From the NCBI RefSeq assembly GCF_003334765.1, contig NZ_QOWT01000003.1: a DNA stretch of 64,000 nucleotides; one strand, given 5' to 3'. Below, piece after piece: positions 8,293 through 39,399 of the stretch; the first letter of the stretch is position 1, and each line of letters starts with the position of its first letter. Both the position numbers and the translations under genes were made by a program. The notes under the pieces are model-generated. The model worked only from the letters and a program-made list of their open reading frames with translations, did no database searches and was not told where the DNA came from. Source of the stretch: Escherichia coli. Lineage in GTDB: Bacteria > Pseudomonadota > Gammaproteobacteria > Enterobacterales > Enterobacteriaceae.

Positions 8293-8618
8293 TGGCAAAG
8301 AACCGTAGCCGTCGTCTGCGTAAAAAAATGCACATCGACGAATTCCAGGAATTAGGATTTTCGGTGGCATGGCGATTCCCGGAAGGTACATCGGAAGAAC
8401 AGATTGATAAAACCGTTGATGACTTTATTAACGAGGTTATCGAACCGAACAAACTGGCCTTTGACGGCAGCGGTTATCTGGCCTGGGAAGGTCTGATCTG
8501 CATGCAGGAAATCGGCAAATGCACCGAAGAACATCAGGCGATTGTGCGTAAGTGGCTGGAAGAACGCAAACTGGAAGAGGTACGCACCAGCGAACTTTTC
8601 GACGTTTGGTGGGACTAA
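8292..8618 (+). CDS. yggL: DUF469 protein YggL (108 aa)
   Basis: [29 protein letters not shown]...; start overlaps trmB stop by 1 nt. Confidence 0.9.
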   Translation: MAKNRSRRLRKKMHIDEFQELGFSVAWRFPEGTSEEQIDKTVDDFINEVIEPNKLAFDGSGYLAWEGLICMQEIGKCTEEHQAIVRKWLEERKLEEVRTSELFDVWWD

Positions 8619-8650
8619 GAAAGCATACGGGCGATGACAAATGCAAAACT

Positions 8651-8730
8651 GCCTGATGTGCTACGCTTATCAGGCCTATAAAGATGCACGATCGAGTAGG
8701 CTGGATAAGGCGTTTACGCCGCATCCGGCA
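8651..8730. repeat. REP/BIME pair (two inverted REP units)
   Basis: GCCTGATGTGCTACGCTTATCAGGCCTA and TAGGCTGGATAAGGCGTTTACGCCGCATCCGGCA, canonical E. coli REP palindromes. Confidence 0.85.
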
Positions 8731-8801
8731 TGGAAAACGCGCACTTTGTTATCAATCTGGGGCCAGCAAATGCTGGCCTGATTTGTTCTTGAGGGAAGAC
8801 T

Positions 8802-9521
8802 ATGATGCGCAAAATGCTGCTGGCGGCAGCACTTTCAGTGACGGCAATGACCGCTCACGCCGACTACCAGTGCAGCGTCACGCCGCGTGACGATGTGATT
8901 GTCAGCCCGCAAACCGTGCAGGTGAAGGGCGAAAACGGCAATCTGGTGATCACGCCAGACGGCAACGTGATGTATAACGGTAAGCAATATTCCCTGAATG
9001 CCGCCCAGCGCGAGCAGGCGAAGGATTATCAGGCTGAACTACGTAGCACCCTGCCGTGGATTGATGAAGGCGCGAAAAGCCGCGTCGAGAAAGCCCGTAT
9101 TGCGCTGGATAAAATTATCGTTCAGGAGATGGGCGAAAGCAGCAAAATGCGCAGCCGTCTGACCAAACTTGATGCGCAGCTGAAAGAGCAGATGAACCGC
9201 ATTATCGAAACGCGCAGCGATGGCCTGACGTTTCACTATAAAGCCATTGATCAGGTTCGTGCCGAAGGCCAGCAATTAGTGAATCAGGCAATGGGCGGAA
9301 TTTTACAGGACAGCATTAATGAAATGGGCGCGAAAGCGGTGCTGAAAAGCGGCGGTAACCCATTACAGAACGTGCTGGGAAGCCTGGGCGGTCTGCAATC
9401 CTCAATCCAAACAGAGTGGAAAAAGCAGGAAAAAGATTTCCAGCAGTTTGGCAAAGATGTTTGTAGCCGCGTTGTGACTCTGGAAGATAGCCGCAAAGCC
9501 CTGGTCGGGAATTTAAAATAA
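8802..9521 (+). CDS. yggN: DUF2884 family periplasmic protein YggN (239 aa)
   Basis: 239-aa ORF with signal peptide MMRKMLLAAALSVTAMTAHA; position between yggL and ansB. Confidence 0.85.
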   Translation: MMRKMLLAAALSVTAMTAHADYQCSVTPRDDVIVSPQTVQVKGENGNLVITPDGNVMYNGKQYSLNAAQREQAKDYQAELRSTLPWIDEGAKSRVEKARIALDKIIVQEMGESSKMRSRLTKLDAQLKEQMNRIIETRSDGLTFHYKAIDQVRAEGQQLVNQAMGGILQDSINEMGAKAVLKSGGNPLQNVLGSLGGLQSSIQTEWKKQEKDFQQFGKDVCSRVVTLEDSRKALVGNLK

Positions 9522-9559
9522 TCCTCTATTTTAAGACGGCATAATACTTTTTTATGCCG

Positions 9560-9696
9560 TTTAATTCTTCGTTTTGTTACCTGCCTCTAACTTTGTAGAT
9601 CTCCAAAATATATTCACGTTGTAAATTGTTTAACGTCAAATTTCCCATACAAAGCTAAGGGATAATGCGTAGCGTTCACGTAACTGGAGGAATGAA
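9560..9696 (+). promoter_or_regulatory. ansB promoter region (CRP/FNR co-activated in E. coli)
   Basis: AT-rich region with TTGT...ACGTCAAA-like half-sites upstream of ansB; exact sites not resolved by eye. Confidence 0.4.
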
Positions 9697-10743
9697 ATGG
9701 AGTTTTTCAAAAAGACGGCACTTGCCGCACTGGTTATGGGTTTTAGTGGTGCAGCATTGGCATTACCCAATATCACCATTTTAGCAACCGGCGGGACCAT
9801 TGCCGGTGGTGGTGACTCCGCAACCAAATCTAACTACACAGCGGGTAAAGTTGGCGTAGAAAATCTGGTTAATGCGGTGCCGCAACTGAAGGACATTGCG
9901 AACGTTAAAGGCGAGCAGGTAGTGAATATTGGCTCCCAGGACATGAACGATGATGTCTGGCTGACACTGGCGAAAAAAATTAACACCGACTGCGATAAAA
10001 CTGACGGCTTCGTCATTACCCACGGTACCGACACGATGGAAGAAACCGCTTACTTCCTCGACCTGACGGTGAAATGCGACAAACCGGTGGTGATGGTCGG
10101 TGCAATGCGCCCGTCCACGTCTATGAGCGCAGACGGTCCATTCAACCTGTATAACGCGGTAGTGACCGCAGCTGATAAAGCCTCCGCTAATCGTGGCGTA
10201 CTGGTAGTGATGAACGACACCGTGCTTGATGGCCGTGGTGTCACCAAAACCAACACCACCGACGTAGCGACCTTCAAGTCTGTTAACTACGGTCCTCTGG
10301 GTTACATTCACAACGGTAAGATTGACTACCAACGTACCCCGGTACGTAAGCACACCAGCGACACGCCGTTCGATGTCTCTAAGCTGAATGAACTGCCGAA
10401 AGTCGGCATTGTTTATAACTACGCTAACGCATCCGATCTTCCGGCTAAAGCACTGGTAGATGCGGGCTATGATGGCATCGTTAGCGCTGGCGTGGGTAAC
10501 GGCAACCTGTATAAAACCGTATTTGACACCCTTGCAACCGCTGCGAAAAACGGCACTGCAGTAGTGCGTTCTTCCCGCGTACCGACGGGCGCTACCACTC
10601 AGGATGCCGAAGTGGATGATGCGAAATACGGCTTCGTCGCCTCTGGCACGTTGAACCCGCAAAAAGCGCGCGTTCTGCTGCAACTGGCTCTGACGCAAAC
10701 TAAAGATCCGCAGCAGATCCAGCAGATCTTCAATCAGTACTAA
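9697..10743 (+). CDS. ansB: L-asparaginase II, periplasmic (348 aa)
   Basis: MEFFKKTALAALVMGFSGAALALPNITILATGGTIAGGG...; carries the residues I recall as K-12-type (A27, D64, T252, N263 of the mature protein). Confidence 0.97.
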   Translation: MEFFKKTALAALVMGFSGAALALPNITILATGGTIAGGGDSATKSNYTAGKVGVENLVNAVPQLKDIANVKGEQVVNIGSQDMNDDVWLTLAKKINTDCDKTDGFVITHGTDTMEETAYFLDLTVKCDKPVVMVGAMRPSTSMSADGPFNLYNAVVTAADKASANRGVLVVMNDTVLDGRGVTKTNTTDVATFKSVNYGPLGYIHNGKIDYQRTPVRKHTSDTPFDVSKLNELPKVGIVYNYANASDLPAKALVDAGYDGIVSAGVGNGNLYKTVFDTLATAAKNGTAVVRSSRVPTGATTQDAEVDDAKYGFVASGTLNPQKARVLLQLALTQTKDPQQIQQIFNQY

Positions 10744-10747
10744 TCAC

Positions 10748-10778
10748 TTCGCCCCGGTATCGTGCCGGGGCTTATTCA
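10748..10778 (+). terminator. ansB terminator hairpin
   Basis: GCCCCGGTATCGTGCCGGGGC stem-loop followed by TTATT. Confidence 0.6.
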
Positions 10779-10859
10779 CTTCAGACTCACGTCCATTGCC
10801 AATTTTTATTACCCTAATGATAATCACCGGAATAAATTATTCCGCGCGAGGGTTTTCGG

Positions 10860-11867
10860 GTGAAAAAGCAATGGATTGTTGGTACGGCGCTGTTTATGTT
10901 GATGACTGGTAATGTCCGGGCAGATGGTGAACCGCCAACTGAAAATATCTTAAAAGATCAATTCAAAAAGCAGTATCACGGCATTCTCAAGCTTGATGTC
11001 ATCACCTTAAAAAATCTTGATGCTAAGGGTAATCAGGCCACCTGGTCAGCGGAAGGCGATGTCTCTTCCAGTGACGATCTCTATACCTGGGTCGGTCAGT
11101 TGGCAGATTACGAGCTGCTCGAACAGACCTGGACGAAAGATAAACCGGTGAAATTCTCGGCGATGTTAACCAGTAAAGGAACGCCCGCGTCTGGCTGGTC
11201 GGTGAACTTTTACTCTTTTCAGGCGGCAGCCAGCGATCGTGGGCGGGTGGTTGACGATATCAAAACCAATAATAAATATCTGATCGTGAATAGCGAAGAT
11301 TTCAATTATCGCTTTAGTCAGCTTGAGTCTGCGTTGAATAACCAGAATAACTCGATTCCTGCACTGAAAAAGGATGTAAAAGCGCTTGATAAGCAAATGG
11401 TGGCGGCGCAGAAAGCAGCGGATGCATATTGGGGAAAAGATGCAAACGGTAAGCAAATGACCCGCGAAGACGCCTTTAAAAAAATTCACCAACAGCGTGA
11501 TGATTTTAATAAACAGAACGATAGTGAGGCGTTCGCGGTTAAATATGACAAAGAGGTTTATCAACCGGCGATTGCGGCATGTCATAAACAGAGTGAAGAG
11601 TGTTATGAAGTGCCAATTCAGCAGAAACGAGATTTTGATATCAATGAACAACGGCGACAGACTTTTCTGCAATCACAAAAACTTAGCCGTAAATTGCAGG
11701 ATGACTGGATAACGCTCGAAAAAGGGCAATATCCGTTAACGATGAAAGTTTCAGAAATAAACAGTAAAAAAGTCACGATTTTGATGAAAATTGACGATAT
11801 CAACCAGGCTAATGAACGCTGGAAAAAAGATACCGAACAATTGCGGCGCAATGGGGTGATTAAGTAA
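10860..11867 (+). CDS. yggM: DUF1202 family protein YggM (335 aa), GTG start
   Basis: 335-aa secreted ORF; synteny ansB-yggM-hemW. Confidence 0.85.
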   Translation: MKKQWIVGTALFMLMTGNVRADGEPPTENILKDQFKKQYHGILKLDVITLKNLDAKGNQATWSAEGDVSSSDDLYTWVGQLADYELLEQTWTKDKPVKFSAMLTSKGTPASGWSVNFYSFQAAASDRGRVVDDIKTNNKYLIVNSEDFNYRFSQLESALNNQNNSIPALKKDVKALDKQMVAAQKAADAYWGKDANGKQMTREDAFKKIHQQRDDFNKQNDSEAFAVKYDKEVYQPAIAACHKQSEECYEVPIQQKRDFDINEQRRQTFLQSQKLSRKLQDDWITLEKGQYPLTMKVSEINSKKVTILMKIDDINQANERWKKDTEQLRRNGVIK

Positions 11868-29418: not shown

Positions 29419-31410
29419 ATGTCCTCACGTAAAGAGCTTGCCAATGCTATTCGTGCGCTGAGCATGGACGCAGTACAGAAAGCCAAATCCGGTCACCCGG
29501 GTGCCCCTATGGGTATGGCTGACATTGCCGAAGTCCTGTGGCGTGATTTCCTGAAACACAACCCGCAGAATCCGTCCTGGGCTGACCGTGACCGCTTCGT
29601 GCTGTCCAACGGCCACGGCTCCATGCTGATCTACAGCCTGCTGCACCTCACCGGTTACGATCTGCCGATGGAAGAACTGAAAAACTTCCGTCAGCTGCAC
29701 TCTAAAACTCCGGGCCACCCGGAAGTAGGTTATACCGCTGGTGTGGAAACCACCACCGGTCCGCTGGGTCAGGGTATTGCCAACGCAGTCGGTATGGCGA
29801 TTGCAGAAAAAACGCTGGCGGCGCAGTTTAACCGTCCGGGCCACGACATTGTCGACCACTACACCTACGCCTTCATGGGTGACGGCTGCATGATGGAAGG
29901 CATCTCCCACGAAGTTTGCTCTCTGGCGGGTACGCTGAAGCTGGGTAAACTGATTGCGTTCTACGATGACAACGGTATCTCTATCGATGGTCACGTTGAA
30001 GGCTGGTTCACCGACGACACCGCAATGCGTTTCGAAGCTTACGGCTGGCACGTTATTCGCGACATCGACGGTCATGACGCGGCATCCATCAAACGCGCAG
30101 TAGAAGAAGCGCGCGCAGTGACTGACAAACCGTCCCTGCTGATGTGCAAAACCATCATCGGTTTCGGTTCCCCGAACAAAGCCGGTACCCACGACTCCCA
30201 CGGTGCGCCACTGGGCGACGCTGAAATTGCCCTGACCCGCGAACAGCTGGGCTGGAAATATGCACCGTTCGAAATCCCGTCTGAAATCTATGCTCAGTGG
30301 GATGCGAAAGAAGCAGGCCAGGCGAAAGAATCCGCATGGAACGAGAAATTCGCTGCTTACGCGAAAGCTTATCCGCAGGAAGCCGCTGAATTTACCCGCC
30401 GTATGAAAGGCGAAATGCCGTCTGACTTCGACGCCAAAGCGAAAGAGTTCATCGCTAAACTGCAGGCTAACCCGGCGAAAATCGCCAGCCGTAAAGCGTC
30501 TCAGAATGCGATTGAAGCGTTCGGCCCGCTGTTGCCGGAATTCCTCGGCGGCTCTGCTGACCTGGCACCGTCTAACCTGACCCTGTGGTCTGGTTCTAAA
30601 GCAATCAACGAAGATGCTGCGGGTAACTACATCCACTACGGTGTTCGCGAGTTCGGTATGACCGCGATTGCTAACGGTATCTCCCTGCACGGTGGCTTCC
30701 TGCCGTACACCTCCACCTTCCTGATGTTCGTGGAATACGCACGTAACGCCGTACGTATGGCTGCGCTGATGAAACAGCGTCAGGTGATGGTTTACACCCA
30801 CGACTCCATCGGTCTGGGCGAAGATGGCCCGACTCACCAGCCGGTTGAGCAGGTCGCTTCACTGCGCGTGACCCCGAACATGTCTACATGGCGTCCGTGT
30901 GACCAGGTTGAATCTGCAGTGGCATGGAAATACGGCGTTGAGCGTCAGGACGGCCCGACTGCGCTTATCCTCTCCCGTCAGAACCTGGCGCAGCAGGAAC
31001 GTACTGAAGAGCAGCTGGCAAACATCGCGCGCGGTGGTTATGTGCTGAAAGACTGTGCCGGTCAGCCGGAACTGATCTTCATCGCGACCGGTTCTGAAGT
31101 TGAACTGGCGGTTGCTGCCTACGAAAAACTGACTGCTGAAGGCGTGAAAGCGCGCGTGGTTTCCATGCCGTCTACCGACGCGTTCGACAAGCAGGATGCG
31201 GCTTACCGTGAGTCTGTACTGCCGAAAGCGGTTACTGCACGCGTTGCGGTGGAAGCGGGTATTGCTGACTACTGGTACAAGTATGTTGGCCTGAACGGTG
31301 CTATCGTCGGCATGACCACCTTCGGTGAATCTGCTCCGGCAGAGCTGCTGTTTGAAGAGTTCGGCTTCACCGTTGACAACGTTGTTGCGAAAGCAAAAGA
31401 ACTGCTGTAA
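29419..31410 (+). CDS. tktA: transketolase 1 (663 aa)
   Basis: [41 protein letters not shown]... recognised; GGAG RBS. Confidence 0.98.
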
Positions 31411-31432
31411 TCGGTAAGATGCTTTGTGAGAA

Positions 31433-31457
31433 GGGCCGCGAAAGCGGCCCTTTTTTT
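31433..31457. terminator. tktA rho-independent terminator; its T-tract overlaps the stop codon of the convergent SPFH gene
   Basis: GGGCCGCGAAAGCGGCCC hairpin followed by TTTTTTT. Confidence 0.85.
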
Positions 31458-32364
31458 ACTTAGTAGAGATAAACGGAACTGTGCTGCCGGGGATCATGGT
31501 ATCGGGCAGTTTACCGTCCCAACGTTCGGCAGTGGTGAGGGCTACAAGTCCGGGATTATCCCGCAGAGCTTCACCGCGCAGGCGGATCGCTTCTGCTTCA
31601 GCCGCACTTTTTAAACGAATAGTTTCAGCCTCTGCCGCGCCTCTTACGCGAATAGTTTCCGCTTCTGCTTTAGCTGCCGCCAGTTTACTGTCTGCTTCTG
31701 CCTGGGCCTGAGTTACCGCTATTTGCGCCTGGATTTTCTCTGTTTCCAGATTTTGCTTACGCGTGGCAATGGCGACTTCTGCTTTCATTCGGTCTTCAAT
31801 CGACTTTTCATAAGCGTCAGAAAAATCAATATTTTCAATCTGGACCCCGTCAATTACCACTGGCCCAACAACGGCTTTGCGCATGGCATTTTGCAGATCC
31901 TGAACCAGTTTTGTACGATCCTGTACCGCGCTGATGGCGGTATATTGGCCGAAAACGTTCTCCAGTTGAGTTGGCAACTGACGGACAATCAGACGATCTT
32001 TTAATGCTTCAATGGTGTTGTAGGTGGTATAAACCGCGCCTGCTTCTGAAGGTTTAATGTGGAAGCTGACTGATACTGTCATTTGTGCCGGTTGCTGGTC
32101 GCGGCTGTAGGCCTGTAATCCCTGATAGACCACAGCCTGATTACGCGTGGAAATTTTCTCCACGCTTTCCATAAACGGGATCTTAAAACCCAGACCCGGC
32201 TCGGCAACTTTTACGATTTTTCCGTAGCGCAGCAAAATGCCGCGTTCACCTTCATTAACGGTGTAATACGAGAGAAATGGCAGCACAACCACGGCAAGCA
32301 CGCCAATGGCGATAGCAAGAGATTTTTGTGGGCGAAATGAGGTTAATGAAACAGGTGCTTTCAT
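31456..32364 (-). CDS. SPFH/band-7 (prohibitin/HflC-like) membrane protein (302 aa from ATG; ORF extends to a GTG at 32400)
   Basis: N-terminal TM segment LAIAIGVLAVVVLPF, PHB-type core GERGILLRYGKI..., C-terminal Ala/Glu-rich coiled coil AEAETIRVRGAAEAETIRLKSAAEAEAIRLRGEA; AAGGAAG RBS before the ATG at 32364; not one of the four K-12 SPFH genes (hflK, hflC, qmcA, yqiK). Confidence 0.85.
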   Translation of the reverse strand: MKAPVSLTSFRPQKSLAIAIGVLAVVVLPFLSYYTVNEGERGILLRYGKIVKVAEPGLGFKIPFMESVEKISTRNQAVVYQGLQAYSRDQQPAQMTVSVSFHIKPSEAGAVYTTYNTIEALKDRLIVRQLPTQLENVFGQYTAISAVQDRTKLVQDLQNAMRKAVVGPVVIDGVQIENIDFSDAYEKSIEDRMKAEVAIATRKQNLETEKIQAQIAVTQAQAEADSKLAAAKAEAETIRVRGAAEAETIRLKSAAEAEAIRLRGEALRDNPGLVALTTAERWDGKLPDTMIPGSTVPFISTK

Positions 32365-32740
32365 ATGAATCTTCCTTGAGTAAAGTGGGGAATATGTCAC
32401 ATGAGGTAAGGAGAAAATAGCCGACAGGTGAGAATTCAGAATCTATAAAGGGGTATAGCGAAAAAACGTTGCATTAAAAAAGTATGTTTTCGGATATTCA
32501 ATAAATAAATGGCGATATGCATCACAAATACAATAACAAACAAAATGTTGATTTTGTGATAAACATAACAAATACAAAGTTGACTTTAAAAATATCAATT
32601 TCATATTGTTGTTATTTAAGGTTTTATTATTTTGGTTTATGGGGTTTTTCTTCTCGCGTACCCAATTGCTTTCATTAAACCGCACGAGTATTTTATTTTT
32701 ACCGCCGGACGGTACCCTAAAAATAAAATAAGGATAATTT

Positions 32741-33184
32741 ATGCGGCTTAGTGATTATTTTCCAGAATCATCAATCTCAGTTATACATTCAGCAAAAGAT
32801 TGGCAGGAAGCTATCGATTTCTCGATGGCATCATTGCTGGATAAAAACTATATCAGCGAGAATTACATTCAGGCAATTAAAGATTCCACCATTAACAATG
32901 GCCCTTATTATATTCTCGCGCCAGGTGTGGCAATGCCTCATGCGCGACCGGAATGTGGGGCGCTTAAAACCGGGATGTCTTTGACGTTACTTAAACAAGG
33001 CGTTTATTTTCCGGGGAATGACGAACCGATTAAATTACTCATCGGGCTTTCTGCTGCCGATGCCGATTCGCACATTGGCGCTATTCAGGCGTTAAGTGAA
33101 TTACTGTGCGAAGAAGAAATACTCGAACAACTCTTAACAGCATCATCAGAAAAACAATTAGCGGACATTATCAGCTGCGGATAA
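32741..33184 (+). CDS. cmtB: PTS EIIA component, mannitol-family (cryptic), 147 aa
   Basis: MRLSDYFPESSISVIHSAKDWQEAIDFSMASLLDK... recognised. Confidence 0.9.
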   Translation: MRLSDYFPESSISVIHSAKDWQEAIDFSMASLLDKNYISENYIQAIKDSTINNGPYYILAPGVAMPHARPECGALKTGMSLTLLKQGVYFPGNDEPIKLLIGLSAADADSHIGAIQALSELLCEEEILEQLLTASSEKQLADIISCG

Positions 33185-33211
33185 TGACTCTCTCCTCTAC
33201 AGGATAATATT

Positions 33212-34600
33212 ATGGAAAACAAGTCTGCTCGTGCAAAGGTCCAGGCTTTTGGGGGCTTTTTGACGGCAATGGTCATCCCCAATATCGGTGCTTTTATTGC
33301 CTGGGGTTTTATTACTGCATTATTTATTCCTACTGGTTGGCTGCCGAATGAACATTTCGCCAAAATTGTCGGCCCGATGATTACCTATTTATTGCCCGTG
33401 ATGATTGGTTCTACCGGTGGTCATCTGGTCGGCGGTAAACGCGGCGCGGTCATGGGCGGAATTGGTACGATTGGTGTGATCGTCGGCGCAGAGATCCCGA
33501 TGTTCCTTGGCTCAATGATTATGGGGCCGCTCGGTGGGCTGGTCATAAAATATGTCGATAAGGCACTGGAAAAACGCATACCTGCTGGTTTTGAGATGGT
33601 TATCAATAACTTCTCATTAGGTATCGCGGGGATGCTCCTTTGTCTGCTGGGTTTTGAAGTGATCGGCCCGGCGGTGTTAATTGCCAATACTTTCGTCAAA
33701 GAGTGTATTGAGGCGCTGGTACATGCGGGTTATCTGCCTCTGCTGTCAGTCATCAATGAACCGGCGAAAGTGCTTTTCCTTAATAATGCGATCGATCAGG
33801 GCGTCTATTATCCGCTGGGAATGCAACAGGCTTCGGTTAACGGTAAATCCATCTTCTTTATGGTGGCCTCTAACCCAGGTCCGGGCCTGGGGCTGCTGCT
33901 GGCGTTTACCTTGTTTGGTAAAGGGATGAGTAAACGTTCTGCGCCCGGGGCGATGATTATTCACTTCCTCGGTGGGATCCACGAACTGTATTTCCCATAT
34001 GTGCTGATGAAGCCGCTGACTATTATTGCCATGATTGCGGGCGGTATGTCTGGCACCTGGATGTTTAACTTACTGGACGGTGGTCTGGTGGCTGGCCCAA
34101 GTCCGGGGTCTATCTTTGCTTACCTGGCGCTGACGCCGAAAGGTTCGTTCCTGGCGACAATTGCCGGTGTTACGGTAGGTACCCTGGTGTCCTTTGCTAT
34201 CACTTCGCTGATACTGAAGATGGAAAAAACGGTGGAAACGGAGAGCGAAGATGAGTTTGCTCAGTCAGCCAATGCGGTTAAGGCGATGAAACAAGAGGGT
34301 GCATTCTCGTTAAGCCGGGTTAAGCGTATCGCCTTTGTTTGCGATGCGGGGATGGGCTCCAGCGCGATGGGCGCAACCACCTTCCGTAAACGTCTGGAAA
34401 AAGCGGGGCTGGCAATTGAAGTAAAACATTACGCGATAGAAAACGTGCCTGCGGATGCGGATATCGTCGTTACTCATGCCAGTCTGGAAGGGCGCGTGAA
34501 ACGTGTGACGGATAAATCACTGATATTGATTAATAACTATATTGGCGATCCAAAACTCGACACTTTATTTAATCAATTAACCGCAGAACATAAACACTGA
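33212..34600 (+). CDS. cmtA: PTS EIICB component, mannitol-family (cryptic), 462 aa
   Basis: 462-aa polytopic ORF with C-terminal EIIB domain (CDAGMGSSAM). Confidence 0.9.
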   Translation: MENKSARAKVQAFGGFLTAMVIPNIGAFIAWGFITALFIPTGWLPNEHFAKIVGPMITYLLPVMIGSTGGHLVGGKRGAVMGGIGTIGVIVGAEIPMFLGSMIMGPLGGLVIKYVDKALEKRIPAGFEMVINNFSLGIAGMLLCLLGFEVIGPAVLIANTFVKECIEALVHAGYLPLLSVINEPAKVLFLNNAIDQGVYYPLGMQQASVNGKSIFFMVASNPGPGLGLLLAFTLFGKGMSKRSAPGAMIIHFLGGIHELYFPYVLMKPLTIIAMIAGGMSGTWMFNLLDGGLVAGPSPGSIFAYLALTPKGSFLATIAGVTVGTLVSFAITSLILKMEKTVETESEDEFAQSANAVKAMKQEGAFSLSRVKRIAFVCDAGMGSSAMGATTFRKRLEKAGLAIEVKHYAIENVPADADIVVTHASLEGRVKRVTDKSLILINNYIGDPKLDTLFNQLTAEHKH

Positions 34601-34614
34601 TTACAGAGGTAAAA

Positions 34615-35892
34615 ATGAAAACCAAAGTTGCTGCTATTTATGGCAAGCGGGATGTCCGTCTGCGCGAATTTGAATTGCCCGAAATTACCGATAATGAACT
34701 GTTAGTGAGTGTAATTTCTGACAGCGTCTGTTTATCGACCTGGAAAGCGGCGTTACTCGGTAGTGAACATAAACGCGTACCCGACGATTTAGAAAATCAT
34801 CCGGTCATTACCGGGCATGAATGTGCCGGGGTTATTGTTGAAGTGGGTAAAAATCTCACCGACAAATATAAAAAAGGCCAGCGTTTTGTATTGCAACCGG
34901 CGATGGGGTTACCAAGCGGATATTCAGCGGGCTACAGCTACGAATATTTTGGCGGTAACGCCACCTATATGATTATTCCTGAAATAGCCATTAACCTGGG
35001 CTGCGTATTACCGTATCACGGCTCTTATTTTGCTGCGGCGTCGCTGGCAGAGCCTATGTGCTGCATTATTGGCGCTTATCATGCCAATTATCACACCACG
35101 CAATATGTTTATGAGCATCGCATGGGCGTTAAACCTGGCGGCAATATTGCGCTGCTGGCATGTGCTGGCCCGATGGGCATTGGCGCTATCGATTATGCCA
35201 TTAACGGCGGCATACAACCGTCGCGGGTGGTGGTGGTCGATATCGACGACAAACGCCTGGCCCAGGTACAGAAGCTGCTGCCGGTGGAGCTGGCGGCCAG
35301 TAAAGGCATTGAGCTGGTGTATGTGAATACCAAAGGGATGAGCGATCCGGTACAGAAGCTGCGGGCGCTGACAGGAGATGTCGGGTTCGATGACATTTTT
35401 GTTTATGCGGCGGTGCCTGCTGTCGTTGAGATGGCTGACGAATTACTGGCGGAAGATGGCTGCCTGAACTTCTTTGCCGGGCCGACGGATAAAAACTTCA
35501 AAGTGCCGTTTAATTTCTACAACGTCCATTACAACAGCACGCACGTCGTCGGTACATCCGGCGGTTCAACGGACGACATGAAAGAGGCGATTACCCTTAG
35601 CGCCACGGGACAGTTACAGCCGTCGTTTATGGTGACCCATATTGGTGGCCTGGATGCGGTGCCAGAAACCGTGCTCAATCTGCCGGATATCCCAGGCGGT
35701 AAAAAACTCATTTATAACGGCGTGACCATGCCGCTCACTGCCATTGCCGATTTTGCCGAAAAAGGCAAAACCGATCCGCTGTTTAAAGAGCTGGCGCGGC
35801 TGGTTGAGGAAACGCACGGCATCTGGAATGAGCAGGCCGAGAAATATCTGCTGGCGCAATTTGGCGTTGATATCGGGGAGGCCGCACAATGA
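34615..35892 (+). CDS. yggP: putative zinc-dependent polyol/alcohol dehydrogenase YggP (425 aa)
   Basis: MDR-family features (GHECAGV, nucleotide-binding GAGPMG); synteny. Confidence 0.85.
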   Translation: MKTKVAAIYGKRDVRLREFELPEITDNELLVSVISDSVCLSTWKAALLGSEHKRVPDDLENHPVITGHECAGVIVEVGKNLTDKYKKGQRFVLQPAMGLPSGYSAGYSYEYFGGNATYMIIPEIAINLGCVLPYHGSYFAAASLAEPMCCIIGAYHANYHTTQYVYEHRMGVKPGGNIALLACAGPMGIGAIDYAINGGIQPSRVVVVDIDDKRLAQVQKLLPVELAASKGIELVYVNTKGMSDPVQKLRALTGDVGFDDIFVYAAVPAVVEMADELLAEDGCLNFFAGPTDKNFKVPFNFYNVHYNSTHVVGTSGGSTDDMKEAITLSATGQLQPSFMVTHIGGLDAVPETVLNLPDIPGGKKLIYNGVTMPLTAIADFAEKGKTDPLFKELARLVEETHGIWNEQAEKYLLAQFGVDIGEAAQ

Positions 35893-36854
35893 TGTCCCTG
35901 GCGTGGCCATTATTTCGCGTTACGGAACAGGCAGCGTTGGCTGCCTGGCCGCAAACCGGATGTGGCGACAAAAATAAAATTGATGGCCTGGCGGTCACCG
36001 CGATGCGCCAGGCATTAAACGATGTCGCTTTTCGTGGGCGAGTGGTTATCGGCGAGGGAGAGATTGACCATGCGCCGATGCTGTGGATTGGCGAAGAGGT
36101 GGGCAAAGGCGATGGGCCAGAAGTCGATATCGCGGTTGACCCGATTGAAGGCACGCGGATGGTGGCGATGGGGCAGAGCAATGCGCTGGCGGTGATGGCC
36201 TTCGCCCCACGAGGCAGCCTGCTACACGCGCCCGATATGTATATGAAAAAGCTGGTTGTTAATCGACTGGCGGCGGGCGCGATTGATCTGTCTTTGCCTC
36301 TGGCGGACAACTTGCGTAACGTGGCGCGGGCGTTAGGTAAACCGCTGGACAAGCTGCGCATGGTTACGCTTGATAAACCGCGCCTGAGTGCCGCAATTGA
36401 GGAAGCAACACAGCTGGGCGTGAAGGTTTTTGCCCTGCCGGATGGCGATGTCGCCGCCAGCGTGCTGACCTGCTGGCAGGATAATCCTTACGACGTGATG
36501 TACACCATTGGCGGTGCGCCGGAGGGCGTGATTTCTGCCTGTGCCGTTAAAGCATTAGGCGGGGATATGCAGGCCGAGCTGATTGACTTTTGTCAGGCTA
36601 AAGGGGATTACACGGAAAATCGGCAGATTGCAGAGCAGGAGCGCAAGCGTTGCAAGGCAATGGGCGTTGACGTTAACCGTGTGTATTCGGTCGATGAACT
36701 GGTGAGGGGGAACGATATCCTCTTTAGCGCTACGGGCGTGACGGGCGGCGAGCTGGTGAACGGTATCCAACAGACGGCGAATGGGGTGCGGACGCAGACA
36801 TTACTGATCGGCGGCGCGGACCAAACGTGTAATATAATAGACTCCCTGCATTGA
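35889..36854 (+). CDS. yggF: class II fructose-1,6-bisphosphatase (GlpX-like) YggF (321 aa)
   Basis: 321-aa ORF recognised as GlpX paralog; ATGA overlap with yggP. Confidence 0.88.
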   Translation: MMSLAWPLFRVTEQAALAAWPQTGCGDKNKIDGLAVTAMRQALNDVAFRGRVVIGEGEIDHAPMLWIGEEVGKGDGPEVDIAVDPIEGTRMVAMGQSNALAVMAFAPRGSLLHAPDMYMKKLVVNRLAAGAIDLSLPLADNLRNVARALGKPLDKLRMVTLDKPRLSAAIEEATQLGVKVFALPDGDVAASVLTCWQDNPYDVMYTIGGAPEGVISACAVKALGGDMQAELIDFCQAKGDYTENRQIAEQERKRCKAMGVDVNRVYSVDELVRGNDILFSATGVTGGELVNGIQQTANGVRTQTLLIGGADQTCNIIDSLH

Positions 36855-36875
36855 TGGTGATCTATCGGAAGACCA

Positions 36876-37385
36876 ATGGCGACGCTGACAGAAGATGATG
36901 TGCTTGAGCAACTGGAGGCACAGGACAATTTATTTTCATTTATGAAAACTGCGCATACCATTTTGCTCCAGGGGATACGCCAGTTTCTGCCGTCGCTGTT
37001 TGTCGATAACGATGAAGAGATCGTCGAATATGCAGTGAAGCCGTTACTCGCCCAAAGCGGCCCGCTTGACGATATTGATGTTGCACTGCGTTTGATTTAT
37101 GCGTTGGGGAAAATGGATAAATGGTTGTACGCCGATATCACGCATTTTTCCCAGTTCTGGCATTACCTGAACGAACAGGATGAAACGCCCGGATTTGCCG
37201 ATGACATGACCTGGGATTTTATCAGCAACGTCAATAGCATAACCTGCAATGCGACGCTCTATGACGCATTGAAAGCGATGAAGTTCGCCGATTTCGCCGT
37301 CTGGTCAGAGGCGCGTTTTAGCGGAATGGTCAAAACGGCGCTGACGCTGGCAGTAACGACCACCTTAAAGGAATTAACGCCGTGA
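36876..37385 (+). CDS. yggD: MtlR-like regulator domain protein YggD (169 aa)
   Basis: 169-aa ORF; synteny. Confidence 0.8.
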   Translation: MATLTEDDVLEQLEAQDNLFSFMKTAHTILLQGIRQFLPSLFVDNDEEIVEYAVKPLLAQSGPLDDIDVALRLIYALGKMDKWLYADITHFSQFWHYLNEQDETPGFADDMTWDFISNVNSITCNATLYDALKAMKFADFAVWSEARFSGMVKTALTLAVTTTLKELTP

Positions 37386-38095
37386 AAATTGAATTAACGG
37401 TGAATGGGCTGAAGATACAGGCACAGTACCAGAACGAAGAGATTGAAAATGTACATAAACCGTTGCTGCACATGCTGGCGGCCTTACAGACGGTAAATCC
37501 GCAGCGGCGTACGGTGGTTTTTCTTTGCGCTCCGCCGGGGACGGGTAAATCAACCCTAACCACCTTCTGGGAATATCTCGCGCAACAAGACCCGGAACTG
37601 CCCGCTATTCAGACGCTCCCGATGGATGGTTTTCACCATTACAATAGCTGGCTGGATGCGCATCAATTGCGCCCCTTCAAAGGCGCACCAGAGACATTTG
37701 ACGTTGCGAAACTGACGGAAAATCTGCGCCAGGTCGTGGAAGGGGATTGTACGTGGCCGCAGTACGATCGACAAAAGCATGATCCTGTTGAAGATGCGTT
37801 GCACGTTACCGCACCACTCGTCATCGTCGAAGGAAACTGGTTGTTACTGGATGATGAAAAGTGGCTGGAGTTGGCATCTTTCTGCGATTTTTCTATTTTT
37901 ATTCATGCACCTGCTCAAATTCTGCGGGAGCGCTTGATTAGTCGTAAAATTGCGGGAGGATTAACGCGGCAAGTAGCCGAAGCATTTTATGCCCGCACCG
38001 ATGGCCCCAATGTCGAGCGTGTGCTGATGAATAGCCGTCAGGCCAATCTGATAGTAGAGATGACTGAAGAAGGCCGGTATCACTTCACAAGCTGA
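37382..38095 (+). CDS. yggC: P-loop kinase-like protein YggC (237 aa)
   Basis: Walker A APPGTGKST; ATGA overlap with yggD. Confidence 0.85.
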   Translation: MKIELTVNGLKIQAQYQNEEIENVHKPLLHMLAALQTVNPQRRTVVFLCAPPGTGKSTLTTFWEYLAQQDPELPAIQTLPMDGFHHYNSWLDAHQLRPFKGAPETFDVAKLTENLRQVVEGDCTWPQYDRQKHDPVEDALHVTAPLVIVEGNWLLLDDEKWLELASFCDFSIFIHAPAQILRERLISRKIAGGLTRQVAEAFYARTDGPNVERVLMNSRQANLIVEMTEEGRYHFTS

Positions 38096-38379
38096 CAATT
38101 TATTCCAGTTATTGTAGGGTTATTATTACGCCAGCCTGGAATAAAGCTTCCCACAAAAGGGGATAAAAGTGTGATGTGAGTCAGATAAATGTCTTCTTCG
38201 GCTGGACAAACATTCCTTTTATTCCACGTTTCGCTTATCCTAGCTGAAGCGTTTCAGTCGATTAAATGTTCGACAATTAACCAATCAGTCGCAGTTTGCG
38301 ACAGGTAAGGTTTCCCCGGACGATTTGCTGGATTACTCTGTCTGGCAAATTTGCTCAGGGAAAACCTTGCAGGAGATCT

Positions 38380-39399
38380 ATGACCGTACGCGTAGCGATA
38401 AATGGCTTCGGTCGCATCGGGCGTAATGTGGTTCGTGCTTTGTATGAATCCGGACGTCGGGCGGAAATTACCGTGGTGGCAATCAACGAACTGGCGGATG
38501 CTGCGGGCATGGCGCATTTGTTGAAATATGACACCAGCCATGGCCGTTTTGCATGGGAAGTACGACAGGAACGCGATCAACTTTTTGTTGGTGATGACGC
38601 CATCCGCGTATTGCATGAACGTTCACTGCAATCGCTCCCCTGGCGTGAACTTGGCGTTGATGTAGTCCTCGACTGCACCGGCGTATATGGCTCCCGCGAA
38701 CATGGCGAAGCGCATATTGCCGCCGGGGCTAAAAAAGTGCTCTTTTCACATCCTGGCAGTAACGATCTCGATGCGACCGTTGTTTACGGCGTCAATCAGG
38801 ATCAACTTCGTGCGGAACACCGCATCGTTTCTAACGCTTCCTGTACCACGAATTGCATAATTCCCGTCATCAAATTGTTAGATGATGCGTACGGTATTGA
38901 GTCCGGCACTGTGACCACAATTCACTCCGCCATGCACGATCAACAGGTTATTGATGCATACCATCCTGACCTGCGTCGCACCCGGGCAGCCAGCCAGTCG
39001 ATCATTCCGGTCGATACTAAACTGGCCGCCGGTATCACACGATTTTTTCCGCAATTTAACGATCGCTTTGAAGCGATTGCGGTACGTGTGCCAACCATAA
39101 ATGTGACGGCAATCGATTTAAGCGTGACGGTGAAGAAACCTGTAAAAGCCAATGAAGTCAACCTGTTGCTGCAAAAAGCAGCACAAGGTGCATTTCATGG
39201 TATAGTTGACTATACGGAATTGCCGTTGGTCTCTGTAGATTTTAACCACGATCCGCATAGTGCCATTGTCGATGGTACTCAAACCCGGGTCAGTGGCGCA
39301 CACCTGATCAAAACGTTGGTCTGGTGCGATAACGAATGGGGCTTTGCTAACCGAATGCTCGACACGACGTTAGCTATGGCTACTGTTGCTTTCAGGTAA
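38380..39399 (+). CDS. epd: D-erythrose-4-phosphate dehydrogenase (339 aa)
   Basis: [37 protein letters not shown]...; AGGAG RBS; start 28 codons inside ORF. Confidence 0.95.

Follow-up and report, generated by a model that had tools for sequence, protein, structure and literature searches.

The window analysed here is a 64,000-nucleotide stretch of Escherichia coli DNA in which six open reading frames (ORFs), cmtB-cmtA-yggP-yggF-yggD-yggC, fill positions 32741-38095, all on the + strand. An earlier note on this DNA had read them as a cryptic six-gene operon for the uptake and catabolism of a sugar or sugar alcohol, built around a phosphotransferase system (PTS), and the ORFs lie on one strand exactly where it had placed them. 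The locus is no discovery: it is the already annotated and universally present cmtBA-yggPFDC locus of E. coli, a long-known cluster of y-genes in K-12. What we add is a sharper and testable pathway hypothesis rather than a new element.

Organisation of the locus

The first two genes encode the PTS components, namely cmtB (32741-33184, 147 amino acids), for an enzyme IIA (EIIA) of the PTS_EIIA_2 type that is the proposed phosphoryl donor to CmtA, and cmtA (33212-34600, 462 amino acids), for an enzyme IICB (EIICB, permease plus EIIB) of the mannitol subfamily without a fused EIIA. They are followed by yggP (34615-35892, 425 amino acids), encoding a Zn-dependent dehydrogenase of the MDR fold; yggF (35889-36854, 321 amino acids), encoding a class II (GlpX-type) sugar bisphosphatase; yggD (36876-37385, 169 amino acids, fumE in RefSeq), encoding an MtlR-family protein; and yggC (37382-38095, 237 amino acids), encoding a P-loop kinase, probably of the PanK/uridine-kinase/FrcK lineage. 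The cluster is flanked by tktA upstream and by epd-pgk-fbaA downstream. The segment 31400-38300 matches E. coli strain B771 with 100% identity, and RefSeq annotates the same genes there (cmtB, cmtA, yggP, a glpX-type gene, fumE and yggC); identity to K-12 strains is 97.7%. Of 5426 complete E. coli genomes, all 5426 contain a match to this segment.

From cmtB to yggC, the junctions measure +27, +14, -4, +21 and -4 nt. The overlaps of the ATGA type that had been described for this cluster are therefore present at two of the five junctions, as ATGA at yggP/yggF and as GTGA at yggD/yggC, but not at the other three, where gaps of 27, 14 and 21 nt separate the genes. A consensus scan found no convincing internal terminator within the cluster. 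The common strand, the spacing, the terminator scan and the conserved linkage described below all point to a single operon from cmtB to yggC. Internal promoters are possible, because a sigma-54 site lies inside yggP and the literature has a "(yggDC)" unit, entered as separate in older work (PMC3946193). The sigma-54 binding motif (CTGGCGGCAATATTGCG, 35135-35151, + strand, approximately 740 nt upstream of yggF) differs by one mismatch (TTGCA to TTGCG) from binding site IS35 within K-12 yggP (PMC4591121), and 0.01 chance matches would be expected.

PTS components

For all six genes, profile, Pfam and structure matches agree with the family identities claimed in the earlier note. CmtB matches the mannitol-type EIIA model NF007358 with 323 bits (cut-off 192), carries a GVAMPHARPE motif with the phosphorylatable His, and is 98% identical to a solved structure labelled "mannitol-specific cryptic EIIA" (2OQ3). 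CmtA also passes the mannitol subfamily cut-offs, narrowly in both cases (TIGR00851, 480.0 vs 468.4; NF011663, 593.7 vs 589). Its EIIB active-site Cys motif, CDAGMGSSAMG (FVCDAGMGSSAMG), aligns to the MtlA EIIB structures 1VKR and 1VRV. A PDB sequence search with CmtA retrieved no EIIC(Mtl) structure and yielded no binding-residue comparison for the transporter.

Since the early 1990s, lists of E. coli PTSs have included cmt as a "cryptic mannitol-like" system. Full-text literature searches on the genes of the cluster turned up no substrate assignment, which bears out the earlier description of the sugar as not established.

The dehydrogenase YggP

YggP has the Pfam domains ADH_N (7.5e-09) and ADH_zinc_N (1.4e-16). 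Its catalytic Zn ligands C39, H68 and E69 are invariant in 13 close orthologs and at least 90% conserved in a family alignment of 33 sequences, and the Rossmann motif GPMGIG is followed by D209. No cut-off of a curated NCBIfam equivalog was reached by YggP (GatD, 20 vs 550; Tdh, 35 vs 458; IolM, 86 vs 450). When only the 13 close homologs were used, the AF2 model had a pLDDT of 56.6, and with the 33-sequence alignment it reached 95.5. In a Foldseek search against the PDB, the latter model matched polyol/sorbitol, butanediol and threonine dehydrogenases at approximately 20% identity (target TM approximately 0.8); these are generic Zn-MDR dehydrogenases, and the fold gave no clue to the substrate.

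A closer relationship emerged with annotated SorE proteins. Over 98% of its length (E 1e-113), YggP shares 45-46% identity with SorE from Klebsiella pneumoniae and Citrobacter freundii records, whose genes lie inside canonical sor operons; identity to the Lactobacillus plantarum SorE equivalent is 43%. In the sor pathway of Klebsiella, SorE interconverts L-sorbose-1-phosphate and D-glucitol-6-phosphate, acting at the carbon beside the phosphorylated one. We considered whether YggP could be a SorE ortholog and rejected this assignment on the basis of the 45-46% identity and of a genomic context with a mannitol-family PTS and a kinase and without a short-chain dehydrogenase (SDR). YggP is instead a SorE paralog, whose chemistry is probably related.

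YggP orthologs with 63-92% identity are found in many Enterobacterales, Vibrionaceae and Clostridia. The family is small: at E<=1e-30, 1.84 billion clusters yielded 221 representatives. Genes for more distant relatives adjoin those for ketose-1-phosphate aldolase-type proteins (an Aldolase_II fusion), FGGY kinases or PfkB kinases. In one such locus (L089, 568-6107), the genes for a glycyl-radical enzyme and its activase immediately precede that for a YggP relative with 42% identity, and a PfkB-family kinase is encoded there too, which suggests recruitment of this dehydrogenase family into an anaerobic radical-enzyme pathway.

YggF, YggD and YggC

The profile and alignment matches identify YggF as a class II, GlpX-type sugar bisphosphatase. 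It matches the class II fructose bisphosphatase (FBPase) model TIGR00330 with 584 bits (cut-off 259), residues 4-321 align without gaps to E. coli GlpX (1NI9, E 5e-112), and the GEGEID, DPIEGT, DGDV and GGAPEG blocks of GlpX are kept. YggF is also related to the structures of dual FBPase and sedoheptulose bisphosphatase (SBPase) enzymes (3ROJ and 5A5L). In E. coli fed on Chlamydomonas, yggF mRNA was up 30.8-fold compared with LB (PMC10972114).

YggD is covered by Pfam MtlR (PF05068, 1.8e-52) over residues 5-167 and matches NF007455 (334 vs 167); in structure searches, it matched 3C8G (E 7.7e-108) and MtlR (6KCR and 3BRJ). Because it scores 87 against a cut-off of 149 for the MltR subfamily, we regard it as a distinct paralog and not as an MtlR ortholog. 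Profile and Pfam scans of YggD returned MtlR-type families as the sole matches and no fumarase or fumarate-lyase family. The name fumE (fumarase E), which is used in RefSeq and was absent from the earlier note, reportedly traces back to an in-vitro screen.

YggC matches the nucleoside/nucleotide-kinase-family equivalog NF006742 with 504 bits (cut-off 402), scores far under the cut-offs for PanK (51 vs 235) and Udk (37 vs 180), and has the Walker A motif PPGTGKST. The nearest structures include PanKs and 3C8U (E 4.6e-21), a putative enzyme to which a structural-genomics group gave the label "fructokinase". A sugar or polyol kinase role was predicted for YggC in 2011, with work described as "in progress" (PMC3223725). 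For its relative FrcK of Sinorhizobium meliloti, whose substrate is unknown, a mutant grows poorly on fructose, mannitol and sorbitol (PMC10433430).

Intactness and purifying selection

None of the six genes differs in length from its K-12 counterpart, and each has 0-5 amino-acid changes. Comparisons with K-12, E. albertii and E. whittamii gave dN/dS values of 0.01-0.27 across the six genes (cmtA, 0.01-0.03; yggP, 0.02-0.06; yggF, 0.04-0.08; cmtB, 0.12-0.19; the others, at most 0.27), on par with those of neighbouring housekeeping genes. For cmtA, a single amino-acid difference from K-12 accompanies 32 nucleotide differences. These values rule out the hypothesis of pseudogenes or decay, which the earlier note had named as a way in which its reading might fail. 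As the genes are full-length and under purifying selection, the cluster appears to be silent in the laboratory rather than decaying, and "cryptic" is used here in the sense of unexpressed in the laboratory, not degenerating.

Divergence from K-12 is not uniform along the cluster. It amounts to approximately 2.5-3% from cmtB to yggF and to approximately 0-0.4% from about position 37300 onward (the 3' end of yggD, yggC, epd and pgk), with one difference in the 714 nt of yggC. This drop suggests a recombination mosaic boundary inside the cluster. Among Escherichia, yggC alleles are 82-92% identical, with dS up to 1.2.

Conservation of the module in distant lineages

We surveyed one genome per species, giving 80 loci from Enterobacterales, Vibrionaceae and Clostridia. 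Homologs of cmtB, cmtA, yggP and yggC are adjacent in every complete locus, YggC always co-occurring with the EII genes and YggP, and EIIA, EIICB, YggP and YggC constitute the invariant core in the three groups. The gene order is EIIA-EIICB-YggP-(YggF)-YggD-YggC in gammaproteobacteria and regulator-EIIA-YggC-EIICB-YggP in Firmicutes. That this linkage is conserved in three distant groups supports the view of one uptake-plus-catabolism module; the earlier note had also counted YggF in its complete module, but this protein is accessory and not part of the core. Its gene is found in only part of the Enterobacterales loci and is absent from the Rahnella inusitata group, Budvicia, Vibrionaceae and Firmicutes. 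The module is self-contained, as the flanking genes are otherwise unrelated between lineages.

YggD is encoded in all gammaproteobacterial loci and nowhere else, and the Firmicutes loci carry a PRD/Mga-type PTS regulator instead. The presence of a PTS regulator in its place supports the idea that YggD is an operon regulator rather than a fumarase, and we consider it probable, from this replacement and the family assignment, that YggD, an MtlR paralog, controls the operon.

One locus departs from the common kinase. In a metagenomic genome (L088, 6118-14190), a mannitol-type EIICB, an EIIA, a YggP homolog (48%), a PfkB kinase, HPr, enzyme I (EI) and an Mga/PRD-type regulator are encoded in one block. 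The PfkB kinase best matches 1-phosphofructokinase (1-PFK) and hexose-phosphate kinase models, and thus an unrelated ketose-phosphate kinase fills the YggC slot in this lineage.

Several enzymes of sugar-phosphate metabolism recur next to the module. In all Vibrionaceae loci, a gene for a PHP-domain phosphoesterase directly follows yggC, and in three Lachnospiraceae-type loci a PPi-dependent phosphofructokinase (PPi-PFK) gene lies just upstream of the module. Transketolase, transaldolase or aldolase genes stand beside it in at least four different arrangements: tktA lies upstream in Enterobacteriaceae; tal-tkt is directly upstream in Vibrio hepatarius, Photobacterium sanctipauli and a Vibrionaceae metagenome-assembled genome (MAG); tkt starts 15 bp past the PHP gene in V. 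mediterranei; an fbaA-type aldolase gene and tkt follow yggC in Rahnella laticis; and ptsI and a split tkt follow yggP in Anaerotalea. In the R. inusitata group, the module adjoins the canonical mtlA-mtlD-mtlR operon, and since both stand side by side there, these genomes have the module on top of the mannitol system rather than as a substitute for it.

Further neighbours in Rahnella, Budvicia, V. mediterranei and several Firmicutes (thioredoxin-like, citrate transporter, cyo operon, opp, glyQS and others) were set aside as unrelated. The GatD-like, 1-PFK and GatY genes upstream of the Garciella locus were likewise rejected as parts of the module, as they look like a separate galactitol/tagatose cluster.

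The region upstream of cmtB

The region upstream of cmtB is AT-rich (GC about 0.35). A script scan located two CRP-like sites in it, GGCGATATGCATCACA at 32511-32526 (site 1, 8 of 10 consensus positions) and TGTGATAAACATAACA at 32555-32570 (site 2, 9 of 10). A 20-nt direct repeat (32514-32533 and 32558-32577, 85% identical and 44 bp apart) has a CRP-like half-palindrome in each copy, site 1 lying in the first. In cross-species alignment, site 1 is kept as a GTGAT-N6-TCACA-like sequence in Escherichia, Superficieibacter, Klebsiella and Lelliottia, the position of site 2 is TTTGTG/TCACA-like in other aligned Enterobacteriaceae, and K-12 and other genera have sites equivalent to both repeat copies. 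The cmt promoter of K-12 has been reported to be CRP-dependent and to be induced about six-fold by uridine (PMC12412646).

A distal sigma-70-like promoter candidate at 32580-32609 (+ strand; TTGACT, a spacer of 16-18 nt and CATATT/TATTGT) is a match to consensus only, with its TTGAC element conserved in the alignment. Closer to cmtB, a conserved promoter-proximal block (32665-32730, + strand) comprises ATTGCTTTCA, CGAGTATTTTATTTTTA and then a 42-nt palindrome, and contains a possible -35 element (TTGCTT, 32666-32671) and a possible -10 element (TATTTT, 32689-32694). The palindrome (32689-32730) has perfect 13-nt arms, 32689-32701 (TATTTTATTTTTA) and 32718-32730 (TAAAAATAAAATA), around the inner palindromic sequence TACCGCCGGACGGTA (32700-32714), and stops at the Shine-Dalgarno sequence of cmtB. 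Its outer sequence is conserved across Enterobacteriaceae, and its inner stem is variable with partly compensating changes. Judged from these features, it may be either an operator or a 5'-leader hairpin. Because RNAalifold found no consensus RNA structure for the cmtB leader across Enterobacterales, we propose the palindrome as a candidate operator only and do not claim an RNA element.

Beyond -85, the upstream sequence had seemed non-homologous to that of K-12, as if the promoter had been replaced. This idea was ruled out by weaker homology extending to about -260, and the multi-species alignment shows that the upstream sequences of the window type and of the K-12 type are homologous throughout, as two alleles that have diverged.

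A possible polyol pathway and alternative explanations

Considering the above results together, we lean slightly towards the view that the cluster is a working PTS-based operon for sugar-alcohol catabolism that normally stays silent under laboratory conditions, and that it would convert a polyol to a polyol-1-phosphate, a ketose-1-phosphate and then a ketose bisphosphate. CmtB and CmtA would import the polyol and phosphorylate its terminal hydroxyl, with phosphoenolpyruvate (PEP) as the donor via EI and HPr. YggP, Zn- and probably NAD-dependent, would oxidise the carbon beside the phosphate to give a ketose-1-phosphate. YggC would then add a second phosphate at the other end, a role like that of FruK on fructose-1-phosphate, giving a ketose 1,omega-bisphosphate such as fructose-1,6-bisphosphate (FBP), sedoheptulose-1,7-bisphosphate or xylulose-1,5-bisphosphate. 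This product might be cleaved by a class II aldolase (FbaA is encoded just downstream) or dephosphorylated at C1 by YggF, in whose stead the PHP protein or PPi-PFK might act on the bisphosphate in other lineages; either the aldolase or the bisphosphatase route would feed glycolysis or the pentose-phosphate pathway. Expression would need cAMP-CRP, and YggD probably exerts control, perhaps via the palindrome before cmtB.

If the product of YggC is FBP, the substrate would be a hexitol of the mannitol or glucitol type. The repeated tkt/tal linkage and the relation to SBPase enzymes would also fit a C7 or C5 polyol, although we consider any non-hexitol version doubtful. In the boldest form of the scheme, which we put forward only as a tentative and rather unlikely proposal, YggC would be the founding member of a new class of P-loop kinases (PanK/FrcK-like) that act on ketose-1-phosphates, and the module would catabolise a polyol other than mannitol. 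This reading would explain why three unrelated enzymes acting on a C1 phosphate (GlpX-type, PHP and PPi-PFK) have been recruited, and why transketolase, transaldolase or aldolase genes lie beside the module in Vibrio, Rahnella, Anaerotalea and Enterobacteriaceae. Its most attractive candidates would be a C7 polyol of the volemitol type (via sedoheptulose-1-phosphate and sedoheptulose-1,7-bisphosphate) or a C5 polyol (via xylulose-1,5-bisphosphate).

Several observations weigh against the proposed polyol operon. The pathway steps rest on inference, as biochemical or genetic support for any of them was not found in the literature covered. SorE runs physiologically as a reductase, so the oxidative direction of YggP is an assumption made by analogy. 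ATP would be spent to no purpose if a C1 phosphatase acted after the kinase, and YggF would not be an obligatory step, because the loci of Rahnella, Budvicia, Vibrionaceae and Firmicutes do without it. The nearest relatives of YggC (PanK, Udk and FrcK) give no firm substrate class, no Pfam domain is significant in the E. coli protein (the Aliivibrio ortholog matches PF00485, PRK), and the substitution by PfkB is seen in one locus only. RefSeq calls YggD fumarase E. The adjacency of tktA in Enterobacteriaceae may be purely positional, as part of a tktA-[cluster]-epd-pgk-fbaA arrangement. Finally, the reported inducer, uridine, is not cmt-specific, since it also induces 12 further aminoglycoside (AG)-importing transporters (PMC12412646).

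The polyol operon has to be compared with simpler readings of the same genes. The historical name "cryptic mannitol", the score of CmtA above the curated mannitol-specific EIIC model (TIGR00851, 480 vs 468) and the position of the module next to mtlA-mtlD-mtlR in the R. inusitata group would all fit a redundant second mannitol system, in which CmtAB imports D-mannitol, YggP replaces MtlD to form fructose-6-phosphate, and YggC, YggF and YggD are unnecessary. However, fructose-6-phosphate as a product needs no kinase, yet yggC or a 1-PFK-like PfkB gene is linked in every complete locus of three phyla-level groups. YggP is related not to MtlD but to SorE, which acts beside the phosphorylated carbon; organisms retain both the module and mtlADR; and CmtA lies barely above the subfamily cut-offs. 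In addition, mannitol is among the conditions in the figure on the cmtA promoter, and only uridine is given as an inducer (PMC12412646). We therefore regard a second mannitol system as improbable.

A ketose substrate is slightly less probable still. CmtAB would in that case make a ketose-1-phosphate, which YggP would reduce to a polyol phosphate in the manner of SorE, leaving enzymes encoded elsewhere to finish the pathway. SorE, the closest characterised relative of YggP, indeed works reductively in sor operons, and the wider Fru/Mtl PTS family includes ketose transporters, but CmtA belongs to the mannitol (polyol) subfamily. Furthermore, sor operons also encode an SDR, a second dehydrogenase by which the polyol phosphate is oxidised again, whereas no such gene was found in the cmt module of any lineage, and the invariant kinase would be left without an obvious substrate.

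It is very unlikely that there is no single unit at all, with a leftover cmtBA beside independent genes (YggF a spare gluconeogenic FBPase, YggD fumarase E and YggC a nucleoside- or pantothenate-type kinase), as the RefSeq product names (fumarase E; nucleoside/nucleotide kinase family), the separate treatment of (yggDC) (PMC3946193), the sigma-54 site inside yggP and the lack of conservation of yggF with the remainder of the cluster might imply, considering that the linkage of the EII genes, yggP and yggC is kept in E. coli, Vibrio and Clostridia despite their different flanks, that stop and start codons overlap at yggP/yggF and yggD/yggC, that YggD is clearly of the MtlR family with no fumarase-family match and has a PTS regulator in its place in Firmicutes, and that YggC is far below the PanK and Udk cut-offs.

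Relation to characterised sugar and polyol systems

Under the proposed polyol scheme, the cluster resembles a hybrid of mtlADR (types of transporter and regulator), sor (type of dehydrogenase) and fruBKA or gat (second phosphorylation before an aldolase), and it is an ortholog of none of them. It has several features in common with mtlA-mtlD-mtlR of E. coli: the EIIC-EIIB belongs to the mannitol subfamily and its EIIB Cys motif is the same, the EIIA is of the PTS_EIIA_2 type, an MtlR-family gene lies downstream, and expression depends on CRP. Unlike mtlADR, cmt encodes its EIIA separately, as CmtB, has a Zn-MDR paralog of SorE instead of MtlD, and includes genes for a P-loop kinase and a class II bisphosphatase; moreover, YggD stays below the MltR subfamily cut-off (87 vs 149). 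The sorCDFBAME systems of Klebsiella and Lactobacillus contribute the parallel of SorE, an oxidoreductase of ketose-1-phosphate/polyol-phosphate that acts on the PTS product and is 43-46% identical to YggP over the full length; however, sor has a mannose-family PTS of four subunits, a second dehydrogenase (SDR) and no kinase, whereas cmt has a mannitol-family PTS, a kinase and no SDR.

In the fruBKA pathway, fructose is converted to fructose-1-phosphate and then to FBP by the PfkB-family kinase FruK. The logic proposed for cmt is similar in that a PTS-derived ketose-1-phosphate would receive a second phosphate to give a bisphosphate for an aldolase, and a FruK-like PfkB kinase sits at the YggC position in the metagenomic L088 locus. 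The E. coli cmt kinase is, in contrast, an unrelated P-loop protein that is preceded by a dehydrogenase step and has a bisphosphatase attached. In the gatYZABCD pathway, galactitol-1-phosphate is converted to tagatose-6-phosphate and then to tagatose-1,6-bisphosphate. The order of a polyol PTS, a Zn-MDR polyol-phosphate dehydrogenase, a kinase and a class II aldolase is like that proposed for cmt, but gat has a different PTS family and its own aldolase GatYZ, and YggP scores 20 against 550 with the GatD model. The cmt module has no dedicated aldolase except in R. laticis. As for frcBCAK of S. meliloti, FrcK probably shares the PanK-like P-loop lineage with YggC and is linked to fructose/polyol transport genes, and the frc transporter, unlike that of cmt, is an ABC system and not a PTS.

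Of the six genes, four are still known by y-names or by doubtful ones such as fumE. Few gaps are left in the inventory of carbohydrate PTSs in E. coli, and identification of the substrate would remove one of them, show what YggP and YggC do, and decide between a regulator and a fumarase for YggD. With the invariant core of four genes, the paralogy of YggP to SorE, the replacement of the kinase and the recurrent transketolase neighbours, this question narrows to a few enzyme assays. There is also a practical side, as deletion of cmtA leads to a higher tobramycin minimum inhibitory concentration (MIC) and overexpression of CmtAB to more aminoglycoside uptake (PMC12412646).

Neighbouring elements

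Between tktA and cmtB lies a gene of the prohibitin/SPFH family (31456-32364, - strand), whose product has weak HflC/HflK-type matches only. The earlier note had placed the cluster directly after this gene and called it non-K-12. It is indeed absent from K-12 and is present in 1831 of 5426 complete E. coli genomes, but it lies on the minus strand, convergent with tktA and divergent from cmtB, and is thus not co-directional with the cluster. Its presence/absence polymorphism is located farther upstream than the diverged cmtB promoter alleles. A GC-rich hairpin with a T-run after tktA (31395-31462, + strand) forms a terminator region common to tktA and the convergent SPFH gene. The sole Rfam match over 31300-38500 falls at this terminator and is sub-threshold (Aggregatibacter sRNA 20, 30.5 bits vs 43), and it is most likely due to chance.

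On the other side of the cluster, many E. coli strains have an island of approximately 3.1 kb between yggC and epd (8405-11481 in strain EC77, L003), which is absent from the window (equivalent site 38096-38379) and from K-12. The island codes for the S and T components and two ATPases of an ECF transporter, as well as for a DNA-binding protein with a PPC domain. In EC77, the only strain with the island that was examined, the protein encoded by the yggC allele shows 88% identity.

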